Assembly (NCBI GenBank): GCA_029939545.1
Contig: JAOZSS010000001.1
Span: 4,747-39,239 of the forward strand
From: Kiritimatiellia bacterium
GTDB lineage: Bacteria; Verrucomicrobiota; Kiritimatiellia; UBA8416; JABMPJ01
Direction of reading: 5' to 3'
Length of the DNA: 34,493 nucleotides
The notes under the pieces were generated by a model, which was not told the DNA's origin, ran no database searches, and was given only the letters and a program-made list of their open reading frames with translations. The position numbers and the translations under genes were made by a program. Shown one piece after another: positions 4,061 to 16,237 of the stretch. How positions within the stretch are numbered: position 1 is the first letter of the stretch; each line of letters begins with the position of its first letter.

Positions 4061-4250
4061 CGACCTCCCTCTTTTGTTTTCCCGCGCCCAATAGCTTCCG
4101 CGACCGGGAGCGGCCTATTTTTCTCCACGTGTAACGGCCCGTCCGTTCCAGCAGCTGGCTCCGCACAGCGACCCACCTAAAAGCGAGATGGTCAGCAGGA
4201 GGAGCAATGCTTTACACTGATGGTTTATGTTGATCATGGAGAGGATTATC

Positions 4251-7200
4251 ATGGACCGAAACCGTACTGCCCGCAAGCTTCGAAGGGTCCTTCCTGCGCT
4301 GCTGGCTGCGCTGCTGCTTGGATACACGCTGACCTGCGCCGCCGCCCCGAAACCGCCGAAGCTCCTGGATCGCAAGAATGTTGTGGCCGCCGCCTCGGAA
4401 ATTACGACGGAGCTCTATCCCAATGCCGACGATGTGGTCGTCGATGAGTACATCCACACCGTCTACAAGGAAGACGGCACCTACCAGACGTGGGACGATG
4501 AGTATATCAAAGTATTGACGGAGAAAGGCAAGCGCAGTCACCAAACCGTCTCGCGCTACTACACACTGCCTTACGGGACCGTTGAAGTAACAGACTTGGC
4601 TGTGATCAAACCTGACGGCACAGTCGTGGATGTGGATGTAACGGCCAACAGCCGGATCATGGTGAATCCAAGCCAGATGAGCGCCAACATCTACAACCCC
4701 AACAGCAAGATCCTGCGCCTGGGTGTACCGGGACTGGAAATCGGCGACCTGCTCCACATCCGCGCATTCCGCGATACGGTCAAGGCGCGCGTACCGAACA
4801 CCTGGAGCGACTACACCGTTCTTGAATACACGGCCCCGATTGCCCATATGCAGATGGAGGTGCGTGGCCCCAAAGACCTGCCCCTGGCCAATATCCGCCT
4901 TTATGATGCCGTGACCAACTCGGTATCGTTCTCCGAGACCTCTTCCCTGCGCAACAAATGGTACCGCTGGGAAGTGCGCGATGTGCCGCGCATGTACCCG
5001 GAACCCAACATGCCGACACTCCACACCGTGGTCCAGCGCCTGTTGATCAGCACGATCCCGGACTGGGAAACCATCTCGCGCTGGTACTGGGAACTCTCTC
5101 TACCCCATCTCGACGCCGTGACGCCGGAGATGGAGGCGAAGGTTGTTGAGCTGGTTGAGGGTGTGAGCGACCGGACAGAGAAGATCGAACGCCTCTTCAG
5201 GTTTGTCTCACAGCAGATCCGGTACATGGGCATTACCACCGAGACCACCGCGCCAGGCTATGAGCCGCACGATGTGAATATCACGTTTGGTAACCGCTAC
5301 GGCGTCTGTCGTGACAAGGCCGCCTTGCTCGTGGCGATGCTGCGCCTGGCCGATCTTCCCGCTTATCCTGTCCTGATCCATGCCGGACCGCGCAAAGATG
5401 AGGAGGTCCCGCAACCTTTCTTCAATCACGCGGTCGTCGCCGTCGGCAACGATGACGGATCCTACACGCTGATGGACCCGACGGACGAGAACACGACTGA
5501 GATCTTTCCTTCGTACCTCAGCTACATGAGCTATCTCGTGGCGCATCCGGAAGGGGAGGGGCTGCGCACCTCGCCTGTCGTGCCGGCTTCCGAGAATCTT
5601 CTCTCCATCGATACCAAGGGCAAGCTGGGTGCCAATGGCCACCTGAGCCTCTCCAGTCGGTTGACGTTCAGTGGCATTAATGACAATGCCTACCGCAGTC
5701 ATTTCACCCGACTGAAGCCGGAAGAGCGCCGACAGTTCTTTGAAGGGCATCTCAAGCGGCGTGTGGCCGGTGCTAAACTGACCGGGCTCAGCATTACCCC
5801 GCCCAATATGCTCGATACGACGCAACCGCTGGTCGTCGCGCTCGACTATGAGGCCGCCGACTACCCCATCTGCGGAGACCGCCACACGATGCTCGCCATC
5901 CCATGGCTGAGCGATAGCCTCGGCTACGCGAACTACCTGCTCGGAAGCACCGGCCTCGATGATCGCAAGTACCCACTCTATACGCGACTGACCGCCGGGG
6001 TCGAGGAGACCTTTGCAGTGGCACTGGATCCCGTCATCGCCAGACAAGCCGCCACCCCTGAAGCCTCCACCTTGTCTGCTGAAGGACTGCGCTATGCGCA
6101 GGCTTTCAGCATAACAAACAACACATTGCTCGCCACGGCCTCGTTTATGGTCGATTCCGTGGAGTTCTCAACGGAGGCCTACCAGGGGCTGAAACAACTT
6201 CTGAAAGACCGTGAGTACGAACAGCGCAAACGTGTCATGTTTGTGGATGCCACCTCAGGTCAGCCCGAGAACGATATCCGGATTCTGTCGGACGCCCTGG
6301 TTGTTGATATTGAAGACGCTTCAAGCTGGACCTCCCGGCACAAGCTCTCCAAGCAGATTGTCACCTATGCCGGAAAGAAAGAGCACTCCGAGCTGAAACT
6401 TGGATTCAACCCGGCCTGGGAAACCGTCACATTGGCCTCCGCGCGCATCGTTAATCCCGACGGATCGGTCCACACCGTCGTGGATGAAGAGATGAACGTG
6501 ATGGACGCCGGCTGGGTCGGCGGCGCCCCGCGCTACCCGCCGGAGCGGACGCTGGTGGTCAGTTTCCCGGGCGTCGAAGAGGGCAGCGTCATCACGTACG
6601 AAGTCGTGCGCCAAGTCAGCGGCAAGCCGTTCTTCTCACTGCACAAGACATTTCAGGGCTTTGACCCTATCGACGCCTCGTCGGTCACCGTTTCCGTCCC
6701 CACCAATCTGGTGCTGACGATCAAGGATGAGAGTGGCACGGACGACTACCTAGTTGATACAACCGGTACCACCACCACACACACTTGGCGCATCGGGCCG
6801 CAGGCCGCAATCAAGCCGGAAGACAACCTGCCGCCACGCTGGACATTCCTGCCGACGCTGGTTGTGTCGGCCGGTAAGTGGAAGACCTATGCGGGAGAGT
6901 TGGATGCCCGCCTCACGGCTGCCATGACCAACGCACCGGCCTGTGAGCAGAAGGCGCGTGAGCTAACGGTCGATTGCACTGATGAGATGGAAAAGGTTCA
7001 AGTCATCCGCGATTTCGTGGCCCGCAACATCCGGAGCGCGGGGCCCTGGCTGACCGCATTGCCGTGGGAGGCCATCACCCCCGCCGATACCACGCTGGCC
7101 GACGGCTATGGCAACACAACCGACCGGGCCATTGTTCTGGCCGTCATGTTGAAAGCCGCCGGGATTGCACCCGAGTATCTTCTGGCCTCGTCGTGGGCCC

Positions 7201-8051
7201 CTCGGCTCGACACGTTGAGCGAAGACCTGCTCGACACAGCGCAAAGAGGCCTCTTCACACACCTGCTCGTACGCGTGATGGATGGTCGCCGTGCGATCTA
7301 TCTGAATGAAACCGACCATTATGCCCAGCTCGGAACCACACCGTTCGAAGGTCACCCGGCCCTCGATATGGATGGACAGCTTTCCGTTATTGAGCCCGCG
7401 CGGGCGATGAAGGAGCGATCACGGGCGGACTTCCTGCTGGAGCTCGAAGCCGATGGAGACGCGCAACTCACCGCCACACGCGCCTACTACGGCATGGCGT
7501 TCGGTGCCACGCGGCGCCTATATGAAGAGATGCCGCCCGAGGAAAGGCGACGCCATTTTATGGAGCTGGTGGCCTCGCTCGCGCAGGCAGCCACGCCGAG
7601 CGGCAAGCTCGACACCGCCTTCGACACCTACCCGGGGTTTCGCTCATTCACGGTCGACATTCCGCGTTACGCCGTGCGAGAGGGCCACTACCTCTACGTC
7701 ACACTACCCGCCGGTATAGGCGACATCCTGCGCCTCAACACCGACACCCGTGACGGCGCCTTCTACCGCCGTGAACCCCAACGCACAACGGTACGCTACG
7801 ATGTGAAGCTGCCCTCCAACACCAAACAGGTCCTCCTCCTGCCACCGGAGATCGACTGGAAGGGCCCGGACGGCCTCGGCACCATCCGATTCGAGCAACG
7901 GCCCACCGACGACCCCCTGCACCTGACCCTCATGCAGGAAGTCAACCTGAACCCCGCCGTCATCCGCCCCGAAGCCTACCCCGTCCTCCTCGACCTCCAC
8001 CAACAGCTCCAGCACCCATCCGTTCGGACGATACTGATTGAACTGGAGTGA
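4251..8051 (+). CDS. Exported tandem DUF3857 plus transglutaminase-like domain protein (two modules)
   Basis: ATG at 4251 after GGAGAGG, then a signal peptide. DUF3857-type segments (LGVPGLEIGD; VSFPGVEEGSVITYE). First transglutaminase core: IRYMG, GVCRDKAALLVAML, FNHAVV, MDPT. The second core is degenerate. Confidence 0.9.
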   Translation: MDRNRTARKLRRVLPALLAALLLGYTLTCAAAPKPPKLLDRKNVVAAASEITTELYPNADDVVVDEYIHTVYKEDGTYQTWDDEYIKVLTEKGKRSHQTVSRYYTLPYGTVEVTDLAVIKPDGTVVDVDVTANSRIMVNPSQMSANIYNPNSKILRLGVPGLEIGDLLHIRAFRDTVKARVPNTWSDYTVLEYTAPIAHMQMEVRGPKDLPLANIRLYDAVTNSVSFSETSSLRNKWYRWEVRDVPRMYPEPNMPTLHTVVQRLLISTIPDWETISRWYWELSLPHLDAVTPEMEAKVVELVEGVSDRTEKIERLFRFVSQQIRYMGITTETTAPGYEPHDVNITFGNRYGVCRDKAALLVAMLRLADLPAYPVLIHAGPRKDEEVPQPFFNHAVVAVGNDDGSYTLMDPTDENTTEIFPSYLSYMSYLVAHPEGEGLRTSPVVPASENLLSIDTKGKLGANGHLSLSSRLTFSGINDNAYRSHFTRLKPEERRQFFEGHLKRRVAGAKLTGLSITPPNMLDTTQPLVVALDYEAADYPICGDRHTMLAIPWLSDSLGYANYLLGSTGLDDRKYPLYTRLTAGVEETFAVALDPVIARQAATPEASTLSAEGLRYAQAFSITNNTLLATASFMVDSVEFSTEAYQGLKQLLKDREYEQRKRVMFVDATSGQPENDIRILSDALVVDIEDASSWTSRHKLSKQIVTYAGKKEHSELKLGFNPAWETVTLASARIVNPDGSVHTVVDEEMNVMDAGWVGGAPRYPPERTLVVSFPGVEEGSVITYEVVRQVSGKPFFSLHKTFQGFDPIDASSVTVSVPTNLVLTIKDESGTDDYLVDTTGTTTTHTWRIGPQAAIKPEDNLPPRWTFLPTLVVSAGKWKTYAGELDARLTAAMTNAPACEQKARELTVDCTDEMEKVQVIRDFVARNIRSAGPWLTALPWEAITPADTTLADGYGNTTDRAIVLAVMLKAAGIAPEYLLASSWAPRLDTLSEDLLDTAQRGLFTHLLVRVMDGRRAIYLNETDHYAQLGTTPFEGHPALDMDGQLSVIEPARAMKERSRADFLLELEADGDAQLTATRAYYGMAFGATRRLYEEMPPEERRRHFMELVASLAQAATPSGKLDTAFDTYPGFRSFTVDIPRYAVREGHYLYVTLPAGIGDILRLNTDTRDGAFYRREPQRTTVRYDVKLPSNTKQVLLLPPEIDWKGPDGLGTIRFEQRPTDDPLHLTLMQEVNLNPAVIRPEAYPVLLDLHQQLQHPSVRTILIELE

Positions 8052-8080
8052 CGGCAGGTGTTCTTCCAAAAGGCTGGTGG
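7830..8080 (+). repeat. Direct repeat copy 1: 3' end of the DUF3857/transglutaminase gene plus ~30 nt downstream
   Basis: 7830-8051 aligns without gaps to 10710-10931 (offset 2880; 12 mismatches in 222 nt by manual count). The distal part and the post-stop TGACGGCAGRTGTTCTTCCAAA also match 11703-11853. Confidence 0.97.
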
Positions 8081-8242
8081 CATCTTGCATTGTGTACGGA
8101 AACGTATATTTTCGTGAGTAGAGGGGGGCATGGCTGGGGGCTTTGCTCCAAGTAACTGATGGATGTAGGCAGAACTCCTTGATAGCCTTCGAGGACATCA
8201 AAGCGATAGCCGTTTCTGACTGCCCTAACCGCGAGAGTTATC

Positions 8243-9070
8243 ATGAAATATGCAACTGCGCTGCTCACAGCGATTTCCTTCATCACGTTTCAAATCCAGC
8301 CGACTGTTGCAGGTGTTGATTGCGGGAGTGACGATTTTGATGACAATATCAAGAATACGAATCTCTGGGGGACAGACCTGGACTTCGGGCCGGATGGTGG
8401 CCTTGTGGAAACCCATGGCAGACTGGAGTTCTGGGGCACTGGACCCGCTATTCGACCGTATGCATGGAGCTACCGAAGCTACGGTCGGGATTGGGAGACT
8501 ATCACCGACGTCAGTCTCGGTGACGTTCAATTGAACCAACCTGATTCCCACGTCCAGATGTTCATAGTGGCGGCGAATCGGGCAGACACCAACCTGATAA
8601 GTGGATTACCAGGTGACCACTTAGTCATGGTGTTGGATCTCTACTCCAGCACAGGTGTCGGGGCTGCTCGGACCTTCGAGGTGAATTTTCGGACGGATTG
8701 GAATGAACTTGAGCCTAGAACCAATGTCCTCACAGCGAGCGAGCAGGCAGGCCTCCGCATCAGCTTCGATGCGACGAGCAAAACCCTGACGGGGTGGTAT
8801 GACGCCAACGGTAGTGTGGGAGGTTATGATTGGACAGCCCTACGTTCGAGACAAGTTGATGTTACGGGCAGCAACTGGCAGATGACGAGCAATTCTACTT
8901 TTGCCGTGTTCGTTGGCGCGAGTTGCGAATCCTTCGATGTCACATCCAACGATCTTGTCTATGTCGACACGTTTATGATGACAGATCAAGCACGGAAACC
9001 ACTTACGGAAAGTGGATGCGTCACTGTTCAAAGGAGAGCCCGCCAAGCCTTCAGCCGTTCTCATCCGTAG
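8243..9070 (+). CDS. Secreted hypothetical beta-rich protein, possibly C-terminally truncated
   Basis: Signal peptide (MKYATALLTAISFITFQIQPTVAG), DDFDDN motif and Trp/Gly/Thr-rich beta-sandwich-like content. The tail overlaps the convergent fic gene. Confidence 0.65.
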   Translation: MKYATALLTAISFITFQIQPTVAGVDCGSDDFDDNIKNTNLWGTDLDFGPDGGLVETHGRLEFWGTGPAIRPYAWSYRSYGRDWETITDVSLGDVQLNQPDSHVQMFIVAANRADTNLISGLPGDHLVMVLDLYSSTGVGAARTFEVNFRTDWNELEPRTNVLTASEQAGLRISFDATSKTLTGWYDANGSVGGYDWTALRSRQVDVTGSNWQMTSNSTFAVFVGASCESFDVTSNDLVYVDTFMMTDQARKPLTESGCVTVQRRARQAFSRSHP

Positions 9071-10577
9071 TGGCGACGTAGCCAGCTTGCATCGCAGCCT
9101 CCATGCGCCCGATCTCTTCCCCGGTGAGCATGCTGAAGTGCGATGAGCGCTTTCGCGCAGAGAGATGTCCGTTGTTCTGCAGGCAGAAACGGATAAACAG
9201 GTCGATCTTCTGGTCCGGTAGATCCACGATCTTCTGTATCGCCGACTTGGTACGATCGTAGTTCTCGATGAAGTTCAGTTCCTCTACCAGCTCTGTGCTG
9301 ACGGTTCGATCGATGAACCGGAAGAGGGCTTCGACCTGTAGGGTCATATCCTGGTAGGCGTACCACCGCTGAACATCGTTGGTTACAGTCATTTTGCCCT
9401 GGTTGTCCAGGCTGTACTCGACAAGGGCCATCAACGGCCTGGAGAACGCTTCCAGCGATGCATCGTATTCGGCGGGATTTTTCAACATTGCCGCCGACAC
9501 TGGAAGCATCACGCCAGCCGGGCTGAATCCACACCGCGCCAGTATATTGTGAATCAGGAATCGGTGTATTCGACCGTTGCCGTCCTCAAACGGATGAATG
9601 AAGACGAACCCGTAGGCCACCGTTGCTGCATGAACCACAGCGGGGACACCGCCGCTCTCCATTGCCTTGTGGGTACCGATAAGACCGGCCATCAACTCGG
9701 ACACTGTCTCTGGTTTTGGGCAAGCGTAATGCACTTTTTCGTGCTGCCAGGAAATCGATTCCCCGACGTAGTTCTGACTCGTCCTGTAGTCGCTGTCACG
9801 GAACCGTGGGTCCACGGTCCGGTTCTGCAGGTCGACAAGTCTTTCCTTGGTGCAGAAGTCCTCTTGCTCCGCCAACTGTAGTAGCGCGATGAATCGCTCC
9901 GTTCGCGAAGATGTCGGCTTGATATGCTCGATCTCGAATGACGACTTGGTTTCCTTGGTATAGAGGTAGCTCATCGCTCGCCTCAGCATCTCCGGCGAAT
10001 AGCGAGCCACAATTTCCCTGCAACGCTCGGCCAGGTTTCTGTCTTCAAGTCGGCGCAGTGTCTCCGTCCGCCGGACGACGGGACAGAAATGGCAGTTTCC
10101 TGAGAGATTGTTGTTCACCCTCTGTCGGCGCACCTGTGGAGCGGGTGCCAGAGTGTAGTATTGGTCTGCGGCAAGAAGGTCGACGTAGTTGCCCCTATTC
10201 AGATCGGGCAGAGGCAACAGATTGCCCGTCAGGAACTCATATAGGAACCAGACCCGACGAGCGTATTTGCCGAGAGGCTTCAACTGGATGTAGCTTACGA
10301 TTTCAGATGAATCAGCAACGGGAAAAAGAGTAGCCAGAATTCCAAGGTTGATGCCGTCGTATTTCAGCGCAAACTCGAGGTGATCCCCCAACGAATCGCC
10401 TGGCCAGTAGGATGGAGGATAGATATCTGTGACGACGGCGCCCGCCGCCTCAGTGCGATGCGTACCGGAAGTTGCCACGAACGAGATGTGCCAGTTTGGC
10501 ACTACCTCAAGTGCGTAGCGTTTGACCAGTTCACCGTAGCCGGCAGGACGAATGGTCTTCTGTGATTCGGTTGTCAT
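9051..10577 (-). CDS. Fic (fido) family protein, ~500 aa class
   Basis: Canonical Fic motif HPFEDGNGRIHR (HxFx[D/E]GNGRxxR). SSFEIEH resembles the (S/T)xxxE(G/N) inhibitory motif. Long N-terminal extension (HLEFALKYDGINL, YARRVWFLYEFLTG). Confidence 0.93.
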   Translation of the reverse strand: MTTESQKTIRPAGYGELVKRYALEVVPNWHISFVATSGTHRTEAAGAVVTDIYPPSYWPGDSLGDHLEFALKYDGINLGILATLFPVADSSEIVSYIQLKPLGKYARRVWFLYEFLTGNLLPLPDLNRGNYVDLLAADQYYTLAPAPQVRRQRVNNNLSGNCHFCPVVRRTETLRRLEDRNLAERCREIVARYSPEMLRRAMSYLYTKETKSSFEIEHIKPTSSRTERFIALLQLAEQEDFCTKERLVDLQNRTVDPRFRDSDYRTSQNYVGESISWQHEKVHYACPKPETVSELMAGLIGTHKAMESGGVPAVVHAATVAYGFVFIHPFEDGNGRIHRFLIHNILARCGFSPAGVMLPVSAAMLKNPAEYDASLEAFSRPLMALVEYSLDNQGKMTVTNDVQRWYAYQDMTLQVEALFRFIDRTVSTELVEELNFIENYDRTKSAIQKIVDLPDQKIDLFIRFCLQNNGHLSARKRSSHFSMLTGEEIGRMEAAMQAGYVATTDENG

Positions 10578-10614
10578 GGCGCACCAGTCCTTCTGAATCG
10601 CTTACGACCACAAG

Positions 10615-10695
10615 AATACGTTTATATATGAGCACATGACAAGGAAAACGTTTACGTGCGAGCGTAATTGATGGATAACGTTCAGATGTTGATGC
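10615..10695. promoter_or_regulatory. Three imperfect direct repeats at a 30-bp period upstream of fic
   Basis: AATACGTTTATATATGAGC (10615), AAAACGTTTACGTGCGAGC (10645) and ATAACGTTCAGATGTTGATGC (10675). Confidence 0.5.
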
Positions 10696-10709
10696 CTGAG
10701 GTCTATGAA

Positions 10710-10931
10710 GTCCACCTCCTGCCGCCGGAGCTCGACTGGAAAGGCCCCGACGGCCTCGGCACCATCCGATTCGAGCAACGGCCCACCGACGACCCCCTGC
10801 ACCTGACCCTCATGCAGGAAGTCAACCTGAACCCAGCCGTCATCCGACCCGAAGCCTACCCCGTCCTCCTCGACCTCCACCAACAGCTCCAGCACCCGTC
10901 CGTTCGGACGATACTGGTGGAGCTGGAGTAA
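10710..10931 (+). repeat. Direct repeat copy 2: orphan 3' fragment of the transglutaminase gene (within ORF 10668..10931)
   Basis: Encodes VHLLPPELDWKGPDGLGTIRFEQRPTDDPLHLTLMQEVNLNPAVIRPEAYPVLLDLHQQLQHPSVRTILVELE*, with only 3 amino-acid differences from the main gene's C-terminus. Confidence 0.97.
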
Positions 10932-11032
10932 GCCAAGGCATTCCTTTGCTCCAAAGGATTGATTGCTCAGTGTAAACACATAGGCGGCGAACTGCGTTGC
11001 ACTCTCACAGGAGGATGCACACTCTCGCGCTA

Positions 11033-11392
11033 TCATTTAGGTCGACGGATGCGCAGCTTAGTGTCTGTGGCCACCACAAGACACGCTGACCAGGCATCGA
11101 CACGTTCGGTCTGAAAAAGACCCAAGATTCGTGCCGTCAAGGCGTGAAGGCCGGGATCACGCAACCTTACCAGAAGAATACCGTGATGGTTACCGGGAAC
11201 GAAACGTCGGATATCGGAGAAGTCAAGATCCTGAGTGATCAGGAATCGGCCCGCTTCACTCGCGTATCGCCACACATCGTCATCATCATGCCCCGCTATG
11301 CCCTCTGAGATAACGGTATCGACATCATGGCCGAGATCTTCGATGGCCTCCTGGAGAGAAGCGGGAATATTCTCATCCAGTTTGATCTTCAT
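11033..11392 (-). CDS. DUF5615 PIN-like toxin (VapC45-like)
   Basis: MKIKLDENIP, GHDVDTV, DDDVWRYA, FLITQDLDF and HHGILLVRL. Its start overlaps the DUF433 stop (ATGA). Confidence 0.9.
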   Translation of the reverse strand: MKIKLDENIPASLQEAIEDLGHDVDTVISEGIAGHDDDDVWRYASEAGRFLITQDLDFSDIRRFVPGNHHGILLVRLRDPGLHALTARILGLFQTERVDAWSACLVVATDTKLRIRRPK

Positions 11393-11628
11393 GCGAAGGC
11401 CGGTAGTGCCGGAACCGGAATATCTTCTTCTGTAGTCCGAGCCGCAAAGGCAATGACGGCACGAACAGCTTCTTCGGTGAGAGTGGGGAAATCCACCAGG
11501 ATGTCTGCGACGGTACACCCTTCAGCCAGGCTGGCTAGAACTGTGCGCAGGGATACACGCGTCCCCGCGATAACGGGTTCGCCCCCACATAGCGATGGAT
11601 TTCGCACAATAAACTTCGCGTAGTTCAT
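11389..11628 (-). CDS. DUF433 antitoxin (VapB45-like)
   Basis: IVRNPSLCGGEPVIAGTRVSLRTVLASLAEGCTVADILVDFPTLTEEAVRAVIAFA is the DUF433 signature. ATG at 11628. Confidence 0.92.
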   Translation of the reverse strand: MNYAKFIVRNPSLCGGEPVIAGTRVSLRTVLASLAEGCTVADILVDFPTLTEEAVRAVIAFAARTTEEDIPVPALPAFA

Positions 11629-11665
11629 GAGAATAGTTTCAATGACGAGTACCTCCCCCGTCAAG

Positions 11666-11863
11666 CCGATTCGAGGCGACTTGCGGCTTCACAACGGCCC
11701 ACCACATCGCACTCGTGCAGGATGTCGACCTCAACCCAGCCGTCATCCGCCCCGAAGCCTGTCCCGTCCTCCTCAACCTCCACCAACAGCTCCAGCACCC
11801 GTCCGTTCGGACCATCCTGGTGGAGCTGGAGTGACGGCAGATGTTCTTCCAAAGGACGGGTGG
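11666..11863 (+). repeat. Direct repeat copy 3: degraded 3' fragment of the transglutaminase gene
   Basis: CCGATTCGAG, a 16-nt insertion, CAACGGCCCACC, a short deletion, then HIALVQDVDLNPAVIRPEACPVLLNLHQQLQHPSVRTILVELE* (TGA at 11832-11834). It shares downstream CGGCAGATGTTCTTCCAAA with copy 1. Confidence 0.93.
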
Positions 11864-11953
11864 GGCACTGCCGACAGTGGGCAGCTCGGGGGGCTGAGGA
11901 GGCGGGGCGGGAGAGGAGACGATGCTCCCGGTGTAGGGCGGCACTGCGCGCGG

Positions 11954-11974
11954 CTTACGTAAGGCTTACGTAAG
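11954..11974. repeat. Tandem doubled palindrome CTTACGTAAG-G-CTTACGTAAG
   Basis: Two perfect 10-bp palindromes separated by 1 nt, seen directly. Confidence 0.8.
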
Positions 11975-12120
11975 ACCCCGAACTCCACGCAAGCTATGCC
12001 GGGCACGTCGCACCTGTAGGGATGCTGGAGGTCTGAGGTCAAGACTCGATCACTCCGGCGCACCGAAGTGCGCCATTGCTTGCGTGTGAGCACGACGTTG
12101 GCAGAAAAGTGATTGGCGAG

Positions 12121-12147
12121 ACGTACACAATTCGAGATACTGTACGT
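12121..12147. promoter_or_regulatory. Probable antitoxin operator (inverted repeat)
   Basis: ACGTACA-N13-TGTACGT ends just before the antitoxin ATG at 12149, the usual position for TA autorepression. Confidence 0.55.
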
Positions 12148-12148
12148 C

Positions 12149-12381
12149 ATGAATACAAAACTGACATTAAGAATTGACATGTTTGTGCATCAGGCGAAGG
12201 CGCACGCCGCACGCCGCGGCAAGTCGGTTTCACAGATGTTTAGCGAATTTGTGGCGGCCCTGGCCTCGAGCAGACCTAAGCCTGCTCTTCCCCCGGTACA
12301 GGCTCCCTGGTGGGGATCATGAAGGGCCACCGGGTGTCAGAGAAGGACTACAAGAAACATCTTGGGAAGAAGTACTCTTGA
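12149..12381 (+). pseudogene. DUF6364-like ribbon-helix-helix antitoxin, frameshifted
   Basis: MNTKLTLRID...AKAHAARRGKSVSQMF...LPPV stops at 12322. The expected tail GSLVGIMKGHRVSEKDYKKHLGKKYS* continues in another frame to TGA 12379-12381, placing the frameshift near 12298-12300. Confidence 0.8.
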
Positions 12382-12494
12382 GAGTTCTGGTTGACACCAA
12401 CATCATTCTCGATGTGCTCCTTGACCGGAAGCCCTTCGTCGAGCACGCAACTCGGATCTTTGCGCTTGTCGAGAAATCCTGTCTTCTTCCTTGA
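12378..12494 (+). pseudogene. PIN-domain toxin (VapC-like), truncated after ~34 codons
   Basis: TTG overlaps the antitoxin stop (TTGA). [20 protein letters not shown] is a classical PIN N-terminus. The sequence runs into the antisense strand of msrB at about 12480. Confidence 0.85.
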
Positions 12495-12957
12495 ACCCCA
12501 AGCTGGCGGAGTTGATGCAGTAGCGCTGGCCGGTGGGTTGGGGGCCGTCTTCGAAGACGTGGCCGAGGTGGCCGCCGCAGTTGGAGCAGAGCACTTCGGT
12601 GCGCCGCATGCCGACGCTGCTGTCGACACGCTCAGCTATGTTGGACGCATGTGAGGTCTGGTAGAAACTCGGCCAGCCGCAACCGGACTCATACTTCTCA
12701 CCGGACGCGAATAGTTCTGCCCCGCAACCGGCGCAGGTGTACGTGCCCGCCTGCTTGTTGTGCAGGAGCGCCCCGGTTCCGGCCCGTTCGGTGCCTGCCT
12801 TACGCAACACCCGATACTGCATAGGCGTCAGTTGCGCTTTCCATTCGGCGTCAGTCTTCTCAACATTCGTACCCATGGTCTTCTCCGCATTCTCAACCAC
12901 CGTTTGCCGACATGACACCAACATGGCCAATGAACAGATAGTGACGGCCGTCTTCAT
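12403..12957 (-). CDS. msrB: Peptide-methionine (R)-S-oxide reductase with a lipoprotein-like signal
   Basis: Motifs [46 protein letters not shown] and RYCINS. N-terminus [16 protein letters not shown]; GGGAGG RBS. The C-terminal ~25 aa read through the PIN remnant. Confidence 0.95.
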
Positions 12958-13003
12958 TTGTGCCTCCCGTCCCACTCTCCCACGTTCGCATCGTCTCACC
13001 TTC

Positions 13004-13705
13004 TCACTCACTCCCCACATCCCTCGCAAACTTCGGATTGTTGCCGGCAATGACGATGGTGACTTCGCCTTTGACTTTGCCCTCGGCGAACTGTTCAGCC
13101 AGGTCGGACAGGAAGCCACGCGAAACCCGTTCGAACTTTTTGGTCAGTTCGATACAGACCGCGGCCTCGCGATCGCCCAGCACGTCATGCGCCGCAGCGA
13201 GACACTTGCCGACACGGAATGGCGACTCAAACAAAACGAGCGTATGGGGCAAGTCCCGCTCGGTCTCGAAGAAGCGCTTCAGGGCGCCAGCCTTGCGCGG
13301 CGGAAAGCCTTTAAAGGTATAGCTGGAGGTGGAAAGCCCTGACACCACGAGGGCCACCGGCACGGACGAGGCGCCGGGAATCACCTGCAGCTCGAGGTCG
13401 CGCTCCACGGCGAGCCGGACGAGGCGGTATCCGGGATCGCTGATTCCGGGCATGCCGCCATCCGAACAGAGCGCAACGGTGTGGCCGTCCTCCAAGGCGC
13501 GCACGAGTCGTTGACCGGCCCGCTTCTCGTTCCCTTCGCGGTAGGAGATGAGTTCGGAGGGGCGGGGAATATCAAAATGCTGTAGCAGAATACGCGTCCG
13601 GCGCGTGTCTTCACAGGCAATCACGTCGGCCGCCGTGAGTGCTTCGACACCACGTCGGCTCATGTCATCCAGGTTGCCGATCGGTGTAGCTACAACATAG
13701 AGCAT
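13004..13705 (-). CDS. rsmI: 16S rRNA (cytidine1402-2'-O)-methyltransferase
   Basis: [45 protein letters not shown] and KGE. Confidence 0.96.
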
Positions 13706-13758
13706 ACTCAGTTTCCTTCCCTGGGGAAGTGGACGTTATGGGTAAGCTGATTCCGGCA

Positions 13759-14253
13759 TCATGGCGACTTGCGCTGTACGGCATCACGTAGCGTGTCAAC
13801 CGTTGTGCTGAAGCGGTCCACATTGCGTTCATCCAAGTCCATCAGTTCGCTATGCGCTTCCAGCAACGTCTCGGGCATGGGAACGGACTTCTCGATGAGG
13901 GGAATATCCTCCAGGTAGAACGGTACGGTGTCTACGCAGGGACGAATATCGAACGCGGTCTCAAACCCCATGTTTTCAAGCAGAATGTTGATATCTTCAC
14001 TCGTCGACAGAAGCGTCGGCTTGCGGTGGTGGTGTGCAATGAAACGACGTGCGATCTTGGCCAGCAGTCCCAAGATCGTGCTGTCGATATGCTCGGTCTT
14101 GCGCATATCGATGATGATGTCGGAGAGCGTCTGGTTGATCGACTCCTCAATGAACGCATCGAAGCGGCGACTCATGGTGAATGTAACGCGCCCGGTCAGC
14201 CTGATATGGCAGACCCCATCTTCAGTCGCTGTCTGTATATTGAATTCGCTCAC
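13759..14253 (-). CDS. STAS-domain anti-sigma-factor antagonist (RssC/PA2797-like)
   Basis: IRLTGRVTF, IIIDM...IDSTILGLL (phosphorylatable Ser), LLENMGF and C-terminal LLEAHSELMDLDERNVDRF. Confidence 0.88.
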   Translation of the reverse strand: MSEFNIQTATEDGVCHIRLTGRVTFTMSRRFDAFIEESINQTLSDIIIDMRKTEHIDSTILGLLAKIARRFIAHHHRKPTLLSTSEDINILLENMGFETAFDIRPCVDTVPFYLEDIPLIEKSVPMPETLLEAHSELMDLDERNVDRFSTTVDTLRDAVQRKSP

Positions 14254-14271
14254 AACATCCTAAGAATAGAC

Positions 14272-14304
14272 GGTTCGAGGTTTAAGGTTCAAGGTTCAAG
14301 GTTC
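14272..14304. repeat. Heptamer tandem repeat (GGTTCAA)n, ~4.7 units
   Basis: GGTTCGA GGTTTAA GGTTCAA GGTTCAA GGTTC, between the phosphatase and STAS genes. Confidence 0.85.
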
Positions 14305-14311
14305 CTGGGTC

Positions 14312-16237
14312 TTATATCCGCTGAACAGTGAGGATCGATACATCATCCGGCGGCATCCTGATATCGGCCAAGGTCAGGCGTTTCCCCATACGCCCGATAT
14401 CGCCGTCGCTCCGCTCCACCACGGTTTCAAGATGTTGCTGCTTCTCCATTAAGGTGGCTTGGTCGAGCAGCTCCAGCACTCCGTCGGAAAAGAAAACGAA
14501 GACAAATGCCTGCGGCAGATCCAGGTCCGCATTCTCATACGTTGAAAACGGGAACATGCCCAATGGCGTCCCCTTGATCTGCATGCCTGCGGCTGCACCG
14601 CCACTCAACAGGATTGGGTAGGGGAACTGACCGCCGTTGGCATAAGTCAACCGATTCGTATCCGTGTCGATAATACCGTAGAAAAGCGTGAGGTGTTTCC
14701 CTATATCCTGCCCAAGCAGTTCCGTGTTCAGCCGGGTTAGAAGCATACCGGGATTCAGCACCACTCGGTCTTCGTTGTTCGTGAAGCGCTCCCGGGCATA
14801 GGACATGAAGCTTTTTAGCAGCACAGTGATGAACGACGAAGAGACGCCATGACCCGACACATCAGCGATATAGAACCCCACATGTTGCTCATCGATCCGG
14901 AAGTAGTCGACAAAGTCGCCGCTCATATAGAACGAAGGCGCGAGAAGGCGCGAGAAAACCAGCGGACCGATCTGCTCTATGGCCGGAGGCAGCAGGCTGG
15001 TCTGGATCGATTTCCCGGCCTCCTCATCGTCACGAAGCTGCTGGAGCGACTCCTCGAGGCGGCGGTTTGTTGCGATCAGTGTGTGGGTACGACTCTGAAT
15101 CTTGTTCTCGAGATCCTCGTTGAGGGCACGAATCGAGTCAACCGCGTGACGGCGCTCCGTGATTTCCACCATGATCCAGATTAAGCCTTCCGGTTCCTTC
15201 TTGTCCTTCATGCCTGCTACCGTGGATATGGAAATATCCCCCCAGTAGATGCTTCCGTCAGGCCATTGATATCGTTTCTCGGAGCGAAACGTGTTGCCGT
15301 TGCCCGAGAGAATTCGATCGACCATGCGTTGTAGCGTGGACTGATCGTTCGGATGAAAATAGTCGAGCATGGACTGACCCACGAGCTCGTCAGAAGACCG
15401 GCCGAACATCTGGCACATTCCGGGATTGGCTCGCTTGATGGTGCCCTCGCAGTCTGTCATGGCCAGTCCGACCGCCGTGTTCCGGAAGAAGGCACGAAAC
15501 CGGGTCTCCAGCTCGGCCAGGAGAGCGCGGGTCTCAGAGATTTCCGCGATCTCGGTGGACAGGCGCGTCGCCATCAGGATGACCATGCCCATGTAGGAGT
15601 ATTCCAGCAGGTAGATGGACTGGATGATGCCAACCGCAACAGCGGTGTCATGCACGACCCCAAAAAAGAAACAGACCAGCGCCACCACCAAGGGAAGGGC
15701 GCGCACGTGGCTCACGCGCCGGTAGAAGCGCAGCCCCACGATCAGCATGTAGATAAAGGCTAGAATGCTCAGCAGATGGAAGCAGACCCCTATCAGCGAG
15801 AACTCGACCTCCCGGTAACTCACCGCACTTCCCAGGAAACGGAACGCCCGCAAGACCGGCCAGTCGACATGAAAGATAAGCGTGTCGGGCGCGAAAGCCA
15901 TCGTGACGGCCATGACCGTGAAAAAGCCCGTGCTGGCCCAACGAAAGCGGCGCGACACAGCGCCAGTGTAGTCGGAACAGAACCAGACAAACGTCATGCC
16001 GACAAAGGCGAGCGACACCATCTGCACGCGCTGCCACATCATGCCGTCCTCGACCGCCGTGGCGCTGTACAGCCCCGCACAGAAGATATCGTACATCCCC
16101 ATCGCTAAACAGCTCAGGGCAAATGTGAGGTCGGTTCGCTTACGCCGGCGACGGGAGGAGAGCAGTAGATGGTAGACCCCCGTGTACAGCGTAATGCTGG
16201 CAAGGACAACAGCCGGAACTGACTGGGACGCGATCAT
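14312..16237 (-). CDS. Membrane sensor with PAS domain and SpoIIE/PP2C phosphatase (start may instead be TTG 16270)
   Basis: About 7 hydrophobic segments, a PAS domain (FRAFFRN...ANPGMCQMFG...FHPND...DGSIYW), a coiled coil, then PP2C motifs SGDFVD, IADVSGHG, ANGGQ, FSDG and DDVS. Confidence 0.9.
   Translation of the reverse strand: MIASQSVPAVVLASITLYTGVYHLLLSSRRRRKRTDLTFALSCLAMGMYDIFCAGLYSATAVEDGMMWQRVQMVSLAFVGMTFVWFCSDYTGAVSRRFRWASTGFFTVMAVTMAFAPDTLIFHVDWPVLRAFRFLGSAVSYREVEFSLIGVCFHLLSILAFIYMLIVGLRFYRRVSHVRALPLVVALVCFFFGVVHDTAVAVGIIQSIYLLEYSYMGMVILMATRLSTEIAEISETRALLAELETRFRAFFRNTAVGLAMTDCEGTIKRANPGMCQMFGRSSDELVGQSMLDYFHPNDQSTLQRMVDRILSGNGNTFRSEKRYQWPDGSIYWGDISISTVAGMKDKKEPEGLIWIMVEITERRHAVDSIRALNEDLENKIQSRTHTLIATNRRLEESLQQLRDDEEAGKSIQTSLLPPAIEQIGPLVFSRLLAPSFYMSGDFVDYFRIDEQHVGFYIADVSGHGVSSSFITVLLKSFMSYARERFTNNEDRVVLNPGMLLTRLNTELLGQDIGKHLTLFYGIIDTDTNRLTYANGGQFPYPILLSGGAAAGMQIKGTPLGMFPFSTYENADLDLPQAFVFVFFSDGVLELLDQATLMEKQQHLETVVERSDGDIGRMGKRLTLADIRMPPDDVSILTVQRI

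Follow-up and report, generated by a model that had tools for sequence, protein, structure and literature searches.

Three diverged copies of a transglutaminase gene end border small Fic and predicted toxin–antitoxin units in a Kiritimatiellia genome

Defence and toxin–antitoxin (TA) genes cluster in hotspots between conserved genes, many of them without visible mobile-element machinery. Among the described systems that such a hotspot may recall, the orphan modules of Rhs and contact-dependent inhibition (CDI) loci hold displaced gene 3′ ends downstream of a full gene, and these orphans encode different toxic tips with immunity genes. Integron arrays line up small unrelated accessory genes in a row at one site. 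Where the e14 prophage or phage 21 is inserted at icd of Escherichia coli, the insert supplies a new 3′ end to the gene and an orphan of about 163 bp stands at the far side (PMC6379469, PMC13626634); e14 itself, a prophage of 15 kb, encodes an integrase and is excised on SOS induction. Accretion of cis-mobilizable elements (CIMEs), as described in one account (PMC5704250), gives rows of units that lack an integrase and are delimited by the end of the protein-coding gene that is targeted, the CIMEs being decayed integrative and conjugative or integrative and mobilizable elements (ICEs or IMEs) whose attL and attR sites are recognised by a related integrase. Direct duplication of a homologous gene-end segment on both sides of an insert is also obtained without a dedicated recombinase, by Campbell-type insertion or by homology-facilitated illegitimate recombination (HFIR): a study in E. 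coli reports duplications of 109–950 bp after a single crossover of a circular non-replicating molecule that carries a lacZ gene-end segment (PMC3240628). Here we describe a locus in a 34,493-nucleotide stretch of DNA (the window) from a Kiritimatiellia bacterium (assembly GCA_029939545.1, contig JAOZSS010000001.1, positions 4,747 to 39,239), in which the 3′ end of a DUF3857/transglutaminase-core gene stands three times in a row, followed each time by cargo genes that include a candidate defence gene of the Fic type and predicted TA genes.

The last ~220 nt of the transglutaminase gene (copy 1) are present again twice downstream in direct orientation, at 10710-10931 (copy 2) and 11666-11863 (copy 3). 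This triplication had been proposed by a first-pass annotation made from the sequence alone, and repeat search, alignment and BLAST all bear it out. The repeat search of the window returned a family of three 166-nt members (7915-8080, 10795-10960 at 84% and 11698-11863 at 86%) and a 220-nt pair (7830-8049 and 10710-10929) with 95% identity. Alignment and BLAST agree on 95% identity over 220 nt between copies 1 and 2, 88% over 152 nt between copies 1 and 3, and 92% over 121 nt between copies 2 and 3. Measured from stop to stop, the units are 2880 and 903 nt long, the lengths that the annotation had given; the second follows from the placement of the copy 3 stop (Table 1). Frame and stop codon are preserved in copies 1 and 2, whose peptides differ at 3 of 74 residues, and the left 45 nt of copy 3 (11666-11711) carry a 16-nt insertion and a deletion of about 13 nt. 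Copy 2 forms an intact 86-codon open reading frame (ORF; 10671-10931) with its own ATG, divergent from the Fic gene over a 93-nt AT-rich spacer. A search of the whole genome (G000; 2.6 Mb in 292 contigs, 88% complete) finds the gene-end fragment at these three places and nowhere else, i.e. it is not a dispersed repeat.

The differences among the copies are mostly silent. Copies 1 and 2 are separated by 7.5 synonymous and 3.5 nonsynonymous differences (dN/dS 0.15), which are clustered, with five in the first 39 nt, two in the middle 149 nt and five in the last 34 nt. Counting back from the gene end, the two copies are identical across −183 to −98 and −84 to −35. Four changes unique to copy 1 (−34, −15, −13 and −10) are derived, copies 2 and 3 retaining the state of the relatives. 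Beyond the stop codon, copies 1 and 3 agree at 25 of 30 positions and copies 1 and 2 at 9 of 30. All three copies have in common synonymous states that are absent from the congeners, suggesting therefore that the copies or their donors come from this lineage and its close kin, and their distance to congener G002 is about equal (97, 101 and 101 of 119 positions for copies 1, 2 and 3). Since the differences are mainly synonymous, the copies appear to be alleles of different lineages and not decaying local duplicates, and the orphan ends of the gene that the annotation had recognised behave as displaced alleles. A mosaic of this kind is what would be expected if the alleles of different strains had been homogenised in part by gene conversion.

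The left edge of copy 2, at −222, reads as a breakpoint between homologues and not as the edge of an attachment site, because the 14 codons directly to its left (10668-10709) are in frame, transglutaminase-like and very diverged, and because 33 of these bases recur in another context. The 14 codons add 6.6 bits to the match with the profile of the C-terminus, a gain that shuffles attain in 9 of 1000 cases and random peptides in 7 of 1000. In two public sequencing runs (X5 and X8) a contig shares with the window exactly the 33 bases 10676-10708 and diverges on both sides, its right break coinciding with the left boundary of copy 2. Read by eye, this contig continues beyond the shared bases as a distant homologue of the transglutaminase gene. 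The 33-mer is absent from the 63 other genomes of the order (allowing up to 3 mismatches), from 400 other sampled genomes of the phylum and from the JGI contigs, a set in which records near the window's genome may be missing.

Whole-genome searches with PF00589, PF00239, PF00665, PF01609, PF00078 and PF07282 placed every match on other contigs, among them all nine to the tyrosine-recombinase family PF00589. The annotation's statement that the window holds no integrase, transposase or reverse transcriptase (RT) holds for these six families and extends to the entire 68-kb contig (C8), on which we find no integrase, resolvase, DDE transposase, RT or TnpB. No copy of the gene-end fragment stands beside any integrase of the genome. 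The non-coding gaps measure 37–285 nt and therefore leave no room for recombinase remnants. Within the copies there are no inverted repeats or hairpins (none of the eight inverted-repeat pairs in 5000-15000 falls in them). Their left boundaries are unequal, at −222 in copy 2 and about −170 in copy 3, the decay of copy 3 weakening this as a test for a common core. The cargo lies on both strands and has its own promoter regions, with the upstream region of Fic conserved.

Set beside the systems described above, the locus has something in common with each. Like an integron array it is a row of small unrelated genes at one site, but there is no adjacent intI with attI and there are no attC-like palindromes; the cargo has its own promoter regions and mixed orientation instead of forming promoterless co-oriented cassettes, and the site is 170–250 nt of coding DNA. 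With no recombinase on the contig, no hairpin, unequal left boundaries and mixed orientation, the integron-like array that the annotation had put forward finds no support. Of the two mechanisms it had offered, homologous recombination fits best. In its mildest form that model is the known tandem accretion at the 3′ end of a target gene and not a new category. As regards CIMEs, we find at the locus no integration or transfer gene remnants or other remnant of a decayed element, no cognate integrase, and no crossover core at one position. The likeness to e14 lies in an imported alternative 3′ end and a displaced orphan with silent or conservative changes; unlike e14, the locus has no integrase next to an attachment site, and its units of 0.9 and 2.9 kb are two in tandem. 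The three ends also encode nearly the same peptide, in contrast to the toxic tips of Rhs and CDI orphans. In size, the repeats here and in the congener G001 (141–250 nt) lie within the range obtained experimentally by Campbell-type insertion and HFIR, but those are laboratory events with one engineered insert, whereas this is a natural locus, stacked twice, with diverged donor alleles and defence and TA cargo. The locus stands out for its small units, the absence of any trace of a recombinase, the retention of three diverged alleles next to one another, and the fact that a congener shows a like arrangement around the same TA family. A narrow literature search (titles and the beginnings of abstracts) found no description of DUF433/DUF5615 arrays or of integrase-less TA islets of this type.

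The site itself varies among relatives. Full-length orthologues of the transglutaminase gene are found in all five congeners, and msrB is kept downstream of it, as in the window, in three of them (G002, G003 and G005). The spacer between the two genes is 10 nt between convergent stops in G005, ~0.43 kb with a DCC1-like gene in G003, 3.3 kb in G002 (a helix-turn-helix (HTH) plus M78 peptidase gene, Hsp20 and two hypothetical genes) and 4.4 kb in the window, and the cargo is unrelated between the last three of these genomes. The site is thus a hotspot, as the annotation had proposed. A repeat of this gene's end is seen in none of the five congeners, and the 76-residue gene tail has no second match in any of the other 63 genomes of the order, leaving the window's genome as the only one of 64. 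The JGI public metagenome contigs, again a set in which records near this genome may be missing, gave no match to a degenerate gene-end pattern. One candidate orphan among small annotated proteins, P0002 (111 aa), comes from a 1029-nt contig whose end seems to have truncated the gene, and was set aside. Flanking repeats of at least 35 nt were found neither at the Fic homologue of a Lentisphaeria metagenome-assembled genome (MAG; L055) nor at the G002 insert, and no transglutaminase fragment lies beside three Fic homologues.

A second case of cargo between repeated gene ends occurs in congener G001. Searching the order for the DUF5615 toxin gave 12 further matches in ten other genomes; the flanks were tested at nine of these loci, and repeats flank the TA family at one of them. 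In G001 a DUF433/DUF5615 pair, 80% identical to that of the window, lies between 141-nt direct repeats of 97% identity placed 1106 nt apart; one repeat forms the 3′ end of a Peripla_BP_3/AraC regulator gene, and its partner is an orphan. These repeats differ by three synonymous and no nonsynonymous changes, plus one change at a boundary codon. DNA likeness between G001 and the window is confined to the two TA ORFs, and the pair is inverted relative to the repeats. That members of one TA family are enclosed by the ends of unrelated genes in the two genomes, and share no flanks, is difficult to reconcile with a fixed attachment arm. In the same region of G001 (L083, C95) an EamA gene end forms nested repeats of 112 nt (88%; 1993-2104 and 6280-6391), 4.3 kb apart. 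At another G001 locus (L082, C62) 193-nt repeats of an AraC-regulator end (90%; 4395-4587 and 7147-7339) surround a 733-aa ORF of no family. A 76-nt palindrome-rich element (99%; 4220-4295 and 7358-7433) stands just outside this last pair.

These copies look like a stack of scars from DNA of other strains, left by ordinary recombination. Quite possibly each unit entered through one homologous crossover in the gene tail and one illegitimate joint, whether Campbell-type or by homology-facilitated insertion; this is the reading that we tentatively favour. The accessory genes that directly follow the transglutaminase gene would have differed from strain to strain in this lineage, and twice the DNA of another strain would have been added to the resident locus without replacing it. 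Each import would have comprised the last ~170–260 nt of the gene and the cargo downstream of that tail. A homologous (or homeologous) crossover inside the tail would have been accompanied by an illegitimate, microhomology-type joint between the tail and the distal end of the import. The import may have been a circularised fragment inserted in Campbell fashion, or a linear fragment inserted by HFIR. Such a crossover would keep the gene intact with a partly imported end (copy 1) and displace the older ends downstream as orphans (copies 2 and 3). Gene conversion between neighbouring copies and deletions (the left trim of copy 3, the PIN truncation and the msrB stop) would later have produced the present mosaic. 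A Fic defence candidate and TA pairs would be the kinds of gene that persist after insertion. We infer this route of entry, the order of the events and the dispensability of a dedicated enzyme. ComEC and DprA are present in the genome; they are nearly universal in control genomes and so carry little weight.

Several points weigh against one-sided homologous insertion. The 275-aa ORF of the first unit occurs in none of the five congeners, public scans yielded no donor, and no sequence was found in which this gene runs straight into the TA pair or into the 275-aa ORF with Fic, as it would in a donor. Two independent additions at one gene, with frame and stop each time, would come more naturally from a site-specific element that brings a replacement end. 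With repeats at one of nine TA loci, the association of the TA family with repeats may be due to chance. The microhomology at the left joint of copy 2, about 4 nt shared where the other contig diverges, was read by eye from 30 loose-end letters, and there is no outside sequence with which to compare the other joints. The synonymous bias, which speaks for alleles, also holds when four repeat pairs of the genus are combined (30.5 synonymous against 14.5 nonsynonymous differences; p=1.3e-8 versus neutrality and p=1.6e-4 versus one neutral and one constrained copy), but these pairs came to light during the work and are not a blind sample, and the p-values are indicative only.

The main rival, which we consider unlikely though a serious contender, is site-specific accretion: two integrative elements with an att site in the 3′ end of the gene and replacement ends of their own would have integrated successively and then decayed to integrase-less, CIME-like remnants that keep addictive or defensive genes. 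The anatomy is that of e14, where the 163-bp displaced pseudo-icd has conservative changes (PMC6379469, PMC13626634), and CIMEs that have accumulated in tandem where a target gene ends are known from the literature (PMC5704250). The kept frame and stop of copies 1 and 2 are explained more naturally in this way, allele-like divergence also fits ends carried by elements, deletion has left scars at the locus, with PIN cut short and msrB deprived of its stop, and the genome has its nine tyrosine-recombinase matches on other contigs. However, the contig shows no integrase or remnant and its gaps are too short for one, no copy of the fragment adjoins the integrases of the genome, and no orphan of this gene end occurs in the other 63 genomes of the order. 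The left boundaries also disagree, with that of copy 2 continuing as a diverged homologue, and in G001 it is the end of a different gene that brackets this TA family, in opposite orientation and without shared flanks. Local origin, an in-place duplication of the tail (by slippage or unequal crossing-over) with later insertion of unrelated cargo, would account for the lineage-specific synonymous states of all three copies and for their near-equal distances from G002. We regard it as very improbable: orphans would be expected to drift neutrally, yet the differences are mostly synonymous; the post-stop sequence of copy 2 is unrelated to that of copies 1 and 3 although its coding part is 95% identical; its left flank is a far more diverged homologue; and every cargo would need a separate additional insertion event. 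It is improbable, too, that the repeats are working parts, i.e. that these are recombinase-free, homology-armed minicassettes of 0.9–3 kb with TA or defence genes and a host-gene tail as portable integration arm. If they were, they would loop out as circles between flanking copies, move between cells and re-enter any genome with the gene, giving integron-like arrays without an integrase, and the same TA family at two gene ends in two species would amount to arm-swapping.

Least probable of all, in our judgement, is an artefact of assembly or phasing, in which the Fic unit of 2.88 kb (or the TA unit of 0.9 kb) would be a separate circle or the DNA of another strain that the assembler threaded into the chromosome by way of stretches shared between copies. 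Part of the stretch is contained in 18 public runs from 15 studies, and all seven runs with at least half of it are labelled as hydrothermal vent metagenomes. The k=31 contigs of four runs were aligned to 6500-14000. Contigs of X2, a run from another study, match with 0 differences at 7988-10778, 10749-10897, 10880-11805 and 11783-14000 and so include each array junction; X3 gives matching pieces, and several such pieces recur in X5. Copies 1 and 2 have identical stretches of 86 and 50 nt (7869-7954 and 7968-8017 in copy 1), which a k=31 graph is unable to phase against their copy 2 twins; all runs consist of such contigs, and the graph alone would be compatible with a chromosome that lacks the Fic unit plus a 2.88-kb circle. 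Against this, an X3 contig (7323-8017, 0 differences) phases the left variants of copy 1 with its middle variants, and each junction recurs as a contig in runs of three further studies. The depths of cargo and flank contigs in X2 are alike (6.5, 7.8, 7.3 and 7.1, figures that are not copy numbers), and the unit has no replication gene, such that a free circle would probably be unable to keep parity. No circle junction, empty site, deletion, indel or repeat-number variant was seen in the contigs of the four runs, in which rare forms would be missed; the junctions of copy 2 or 3 to copy 1 and the empty-site alleles that the annotation had wished to see looked for are thus missing from them. A gap in X8 at 11018-11770 was considered as a TA-less allele and rejected: the cover of X8 is thin and patchy, the neighbouring positions are covered, and the gap is no evidence of such an allele.

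Table 1. Features of the gene-end array and its surroundings (positions in the window)
Feature	Position	Strand	Description
DUF3857/transglutaminase-core gene, 1274 aa	4227-8051	+	PF12969 2.2e-39, PF01841 8e-17
Copy 1	7830-8080	+	functional last 222 nt of the gene and 29 nt post-stop
275-aa ORF, cargo 1	8243-9070	+	signal-peptide-like N-terminus; no known family
Fic-domain protein, 508 aa, cargo 1	9051-10577	-	PF02661 2.4e-14; PADLOC PDC-S24
Fic upstream/promoter region	10578-10667	-	conserved with L055 to ~10655 (~100 nt before the start codon)
Diverged in-frame transglutaminase-like stretch	10668-10709	+	14 codons directly left of copy 2
Copy 2	10710-10960	+	orphan 3′ end, frame intact, TAA stop 10929-10931; post-stop unlike copies 1 and 3
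DUF5615 (PIN-like) predicted toxin, cargo 2	11033-11392	-	PF18480 1.1e-23 and weak PIN_10 match
DUF433 predicted antitoxin, cargo 2	11389-11628	-	PF04255 2e-20; stop overlaps toxin start by 4 nt
Copy 3	11666-11863	+	degraded orphan 3′ end, stop 11832-11834; ancestral residues and native-type post-stop sequence retained
DUF6364 predicted antitoxin, cargo 3	12149-12322	+	PF19891 2.2e-8
PIN_3 toxin remnant	12378-12494	+	PF13470 1.8e-5, below curated cut-off, profile positions 1-31 of 115
msrB	12403-13119	-	PF01641 5.4e-50

The Fic protein is a candidate phage-defence protein of the PDC-S24 family, itself a candidate defence family, to which it has a full-length match (E 4.8e-181, residues 9-499 on model positions 4-488 of 497). 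Homologues include one of 81% identity in L055 and full-length ones of ~40% on 261 plasmid records. The L055 gene lies between sulfatase genes and beside an AbiEi/AbiEii pair (6001-7527 and 8556-10312 on the L055 contig), with no integrase within 6 kb. Upstream of Fic in the window there is a promoter-like site at 10642-10613; such sites are no commoner than in shuffled sequence, and neither the promoter nor the terminator scan gave numbers above shuffled sequence. Its neighbour in the unit, the 275-aa ORF, has no match in Pfam, NCBIfam or PADLOC. The DUF433/DUF5615 genes, the start of the latter placed from the Pfam match and the sequence, have the form of a two-gene operon in which the antitoxin is upstream of, and overlaps, a PIN-family toxin whose toxicity is predicted. 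DUF433 (COG2442) is described as a predicted antitoxin paired with PIN toxins (PMC2701414).

At the right edge, only the first ~38 codons of the PIN gene behind copy 3 are left, cut at the msrB junction. The native stop of msrB is lost, so that 26 additional residues are translated antisense across the PIN remnant, and likeness to the congeners restarts at 12476-12485. We conclude from the shortened PIN gene and the missing stop that deletion has acted at this edge. In three congeners the msrB stop is seen shortly after a conserved ...SLGFE motif (...GFE in one; two add two or three residues). The ~30 nt after the stop of copies 1 and 3 were considered as a remnant of an msrB end, an origin by which the repeat would be a copy of the entire convergent junction, and this was discarded: local alignment to four msrB ends was no better than with shuffles (best 108/1000). 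Further downstream, G005, G002 and G003 have an HflX-type GTPase gene (GTP-bdg_N and MMR_HSR1; 372–423 aa) between a tetrapyrrole methylase gene and a STAS gene; in the window this interval is only 54 nt long (13705-13759), and tblastn of the 88%-complete genome finds no copy. The G+C content of the cargo is ~51–56%, against ~60–65% in the transglutaminase gene. Low G+C was dropped as a sign of foreign origin, since the downstream core genes are equally low.

A dispersed intergenic repeat of ~160 nt (11862-12024) abuts copy 3 and holds two tandem copies of an 11-nt palindromic motif. Further copies stand at C209:171-351 and C72:5476-5590 (77%), giving three full copies in the genome, two of them near contig ends, and congener G004 has one copy (80%). 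Shorter matches to the palindrome only are found elsewhere; in G005 a DUF5615 homologue lies 1.5 kb from one such match. The repeat could be an element akin to a miniature inverted-repeat transposable element (MITE) or an operator. An Rfam search of 7500-12800 gave no match at E<=1. Self-BLAST of the genome found 15 pairs of local direct repeats; three are those of the array, one on C291 is the sole other candidate and the rest are paralogous domains. The C291 pair (5453-5666 and 6776-6995; 221 nt, 87%) stands around a class-V aminotransferase gene beside lpxC. As a further case of a repeated gene end it was rejected, the repeat having no recognisable coding content.

The locus retains footprints that are usually erased, with three diverged alleles in a row, each of which would mark one acquisition, and the route of acquisition can be read as additive, one-sided homologous insertion. 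If a cognate integrase were found instead, the locus would be an ordinary, if very compact, tandem accretion. If such scars are common in the genus, these islets would be built mainly by general recombination and not by dedicated recombinases.

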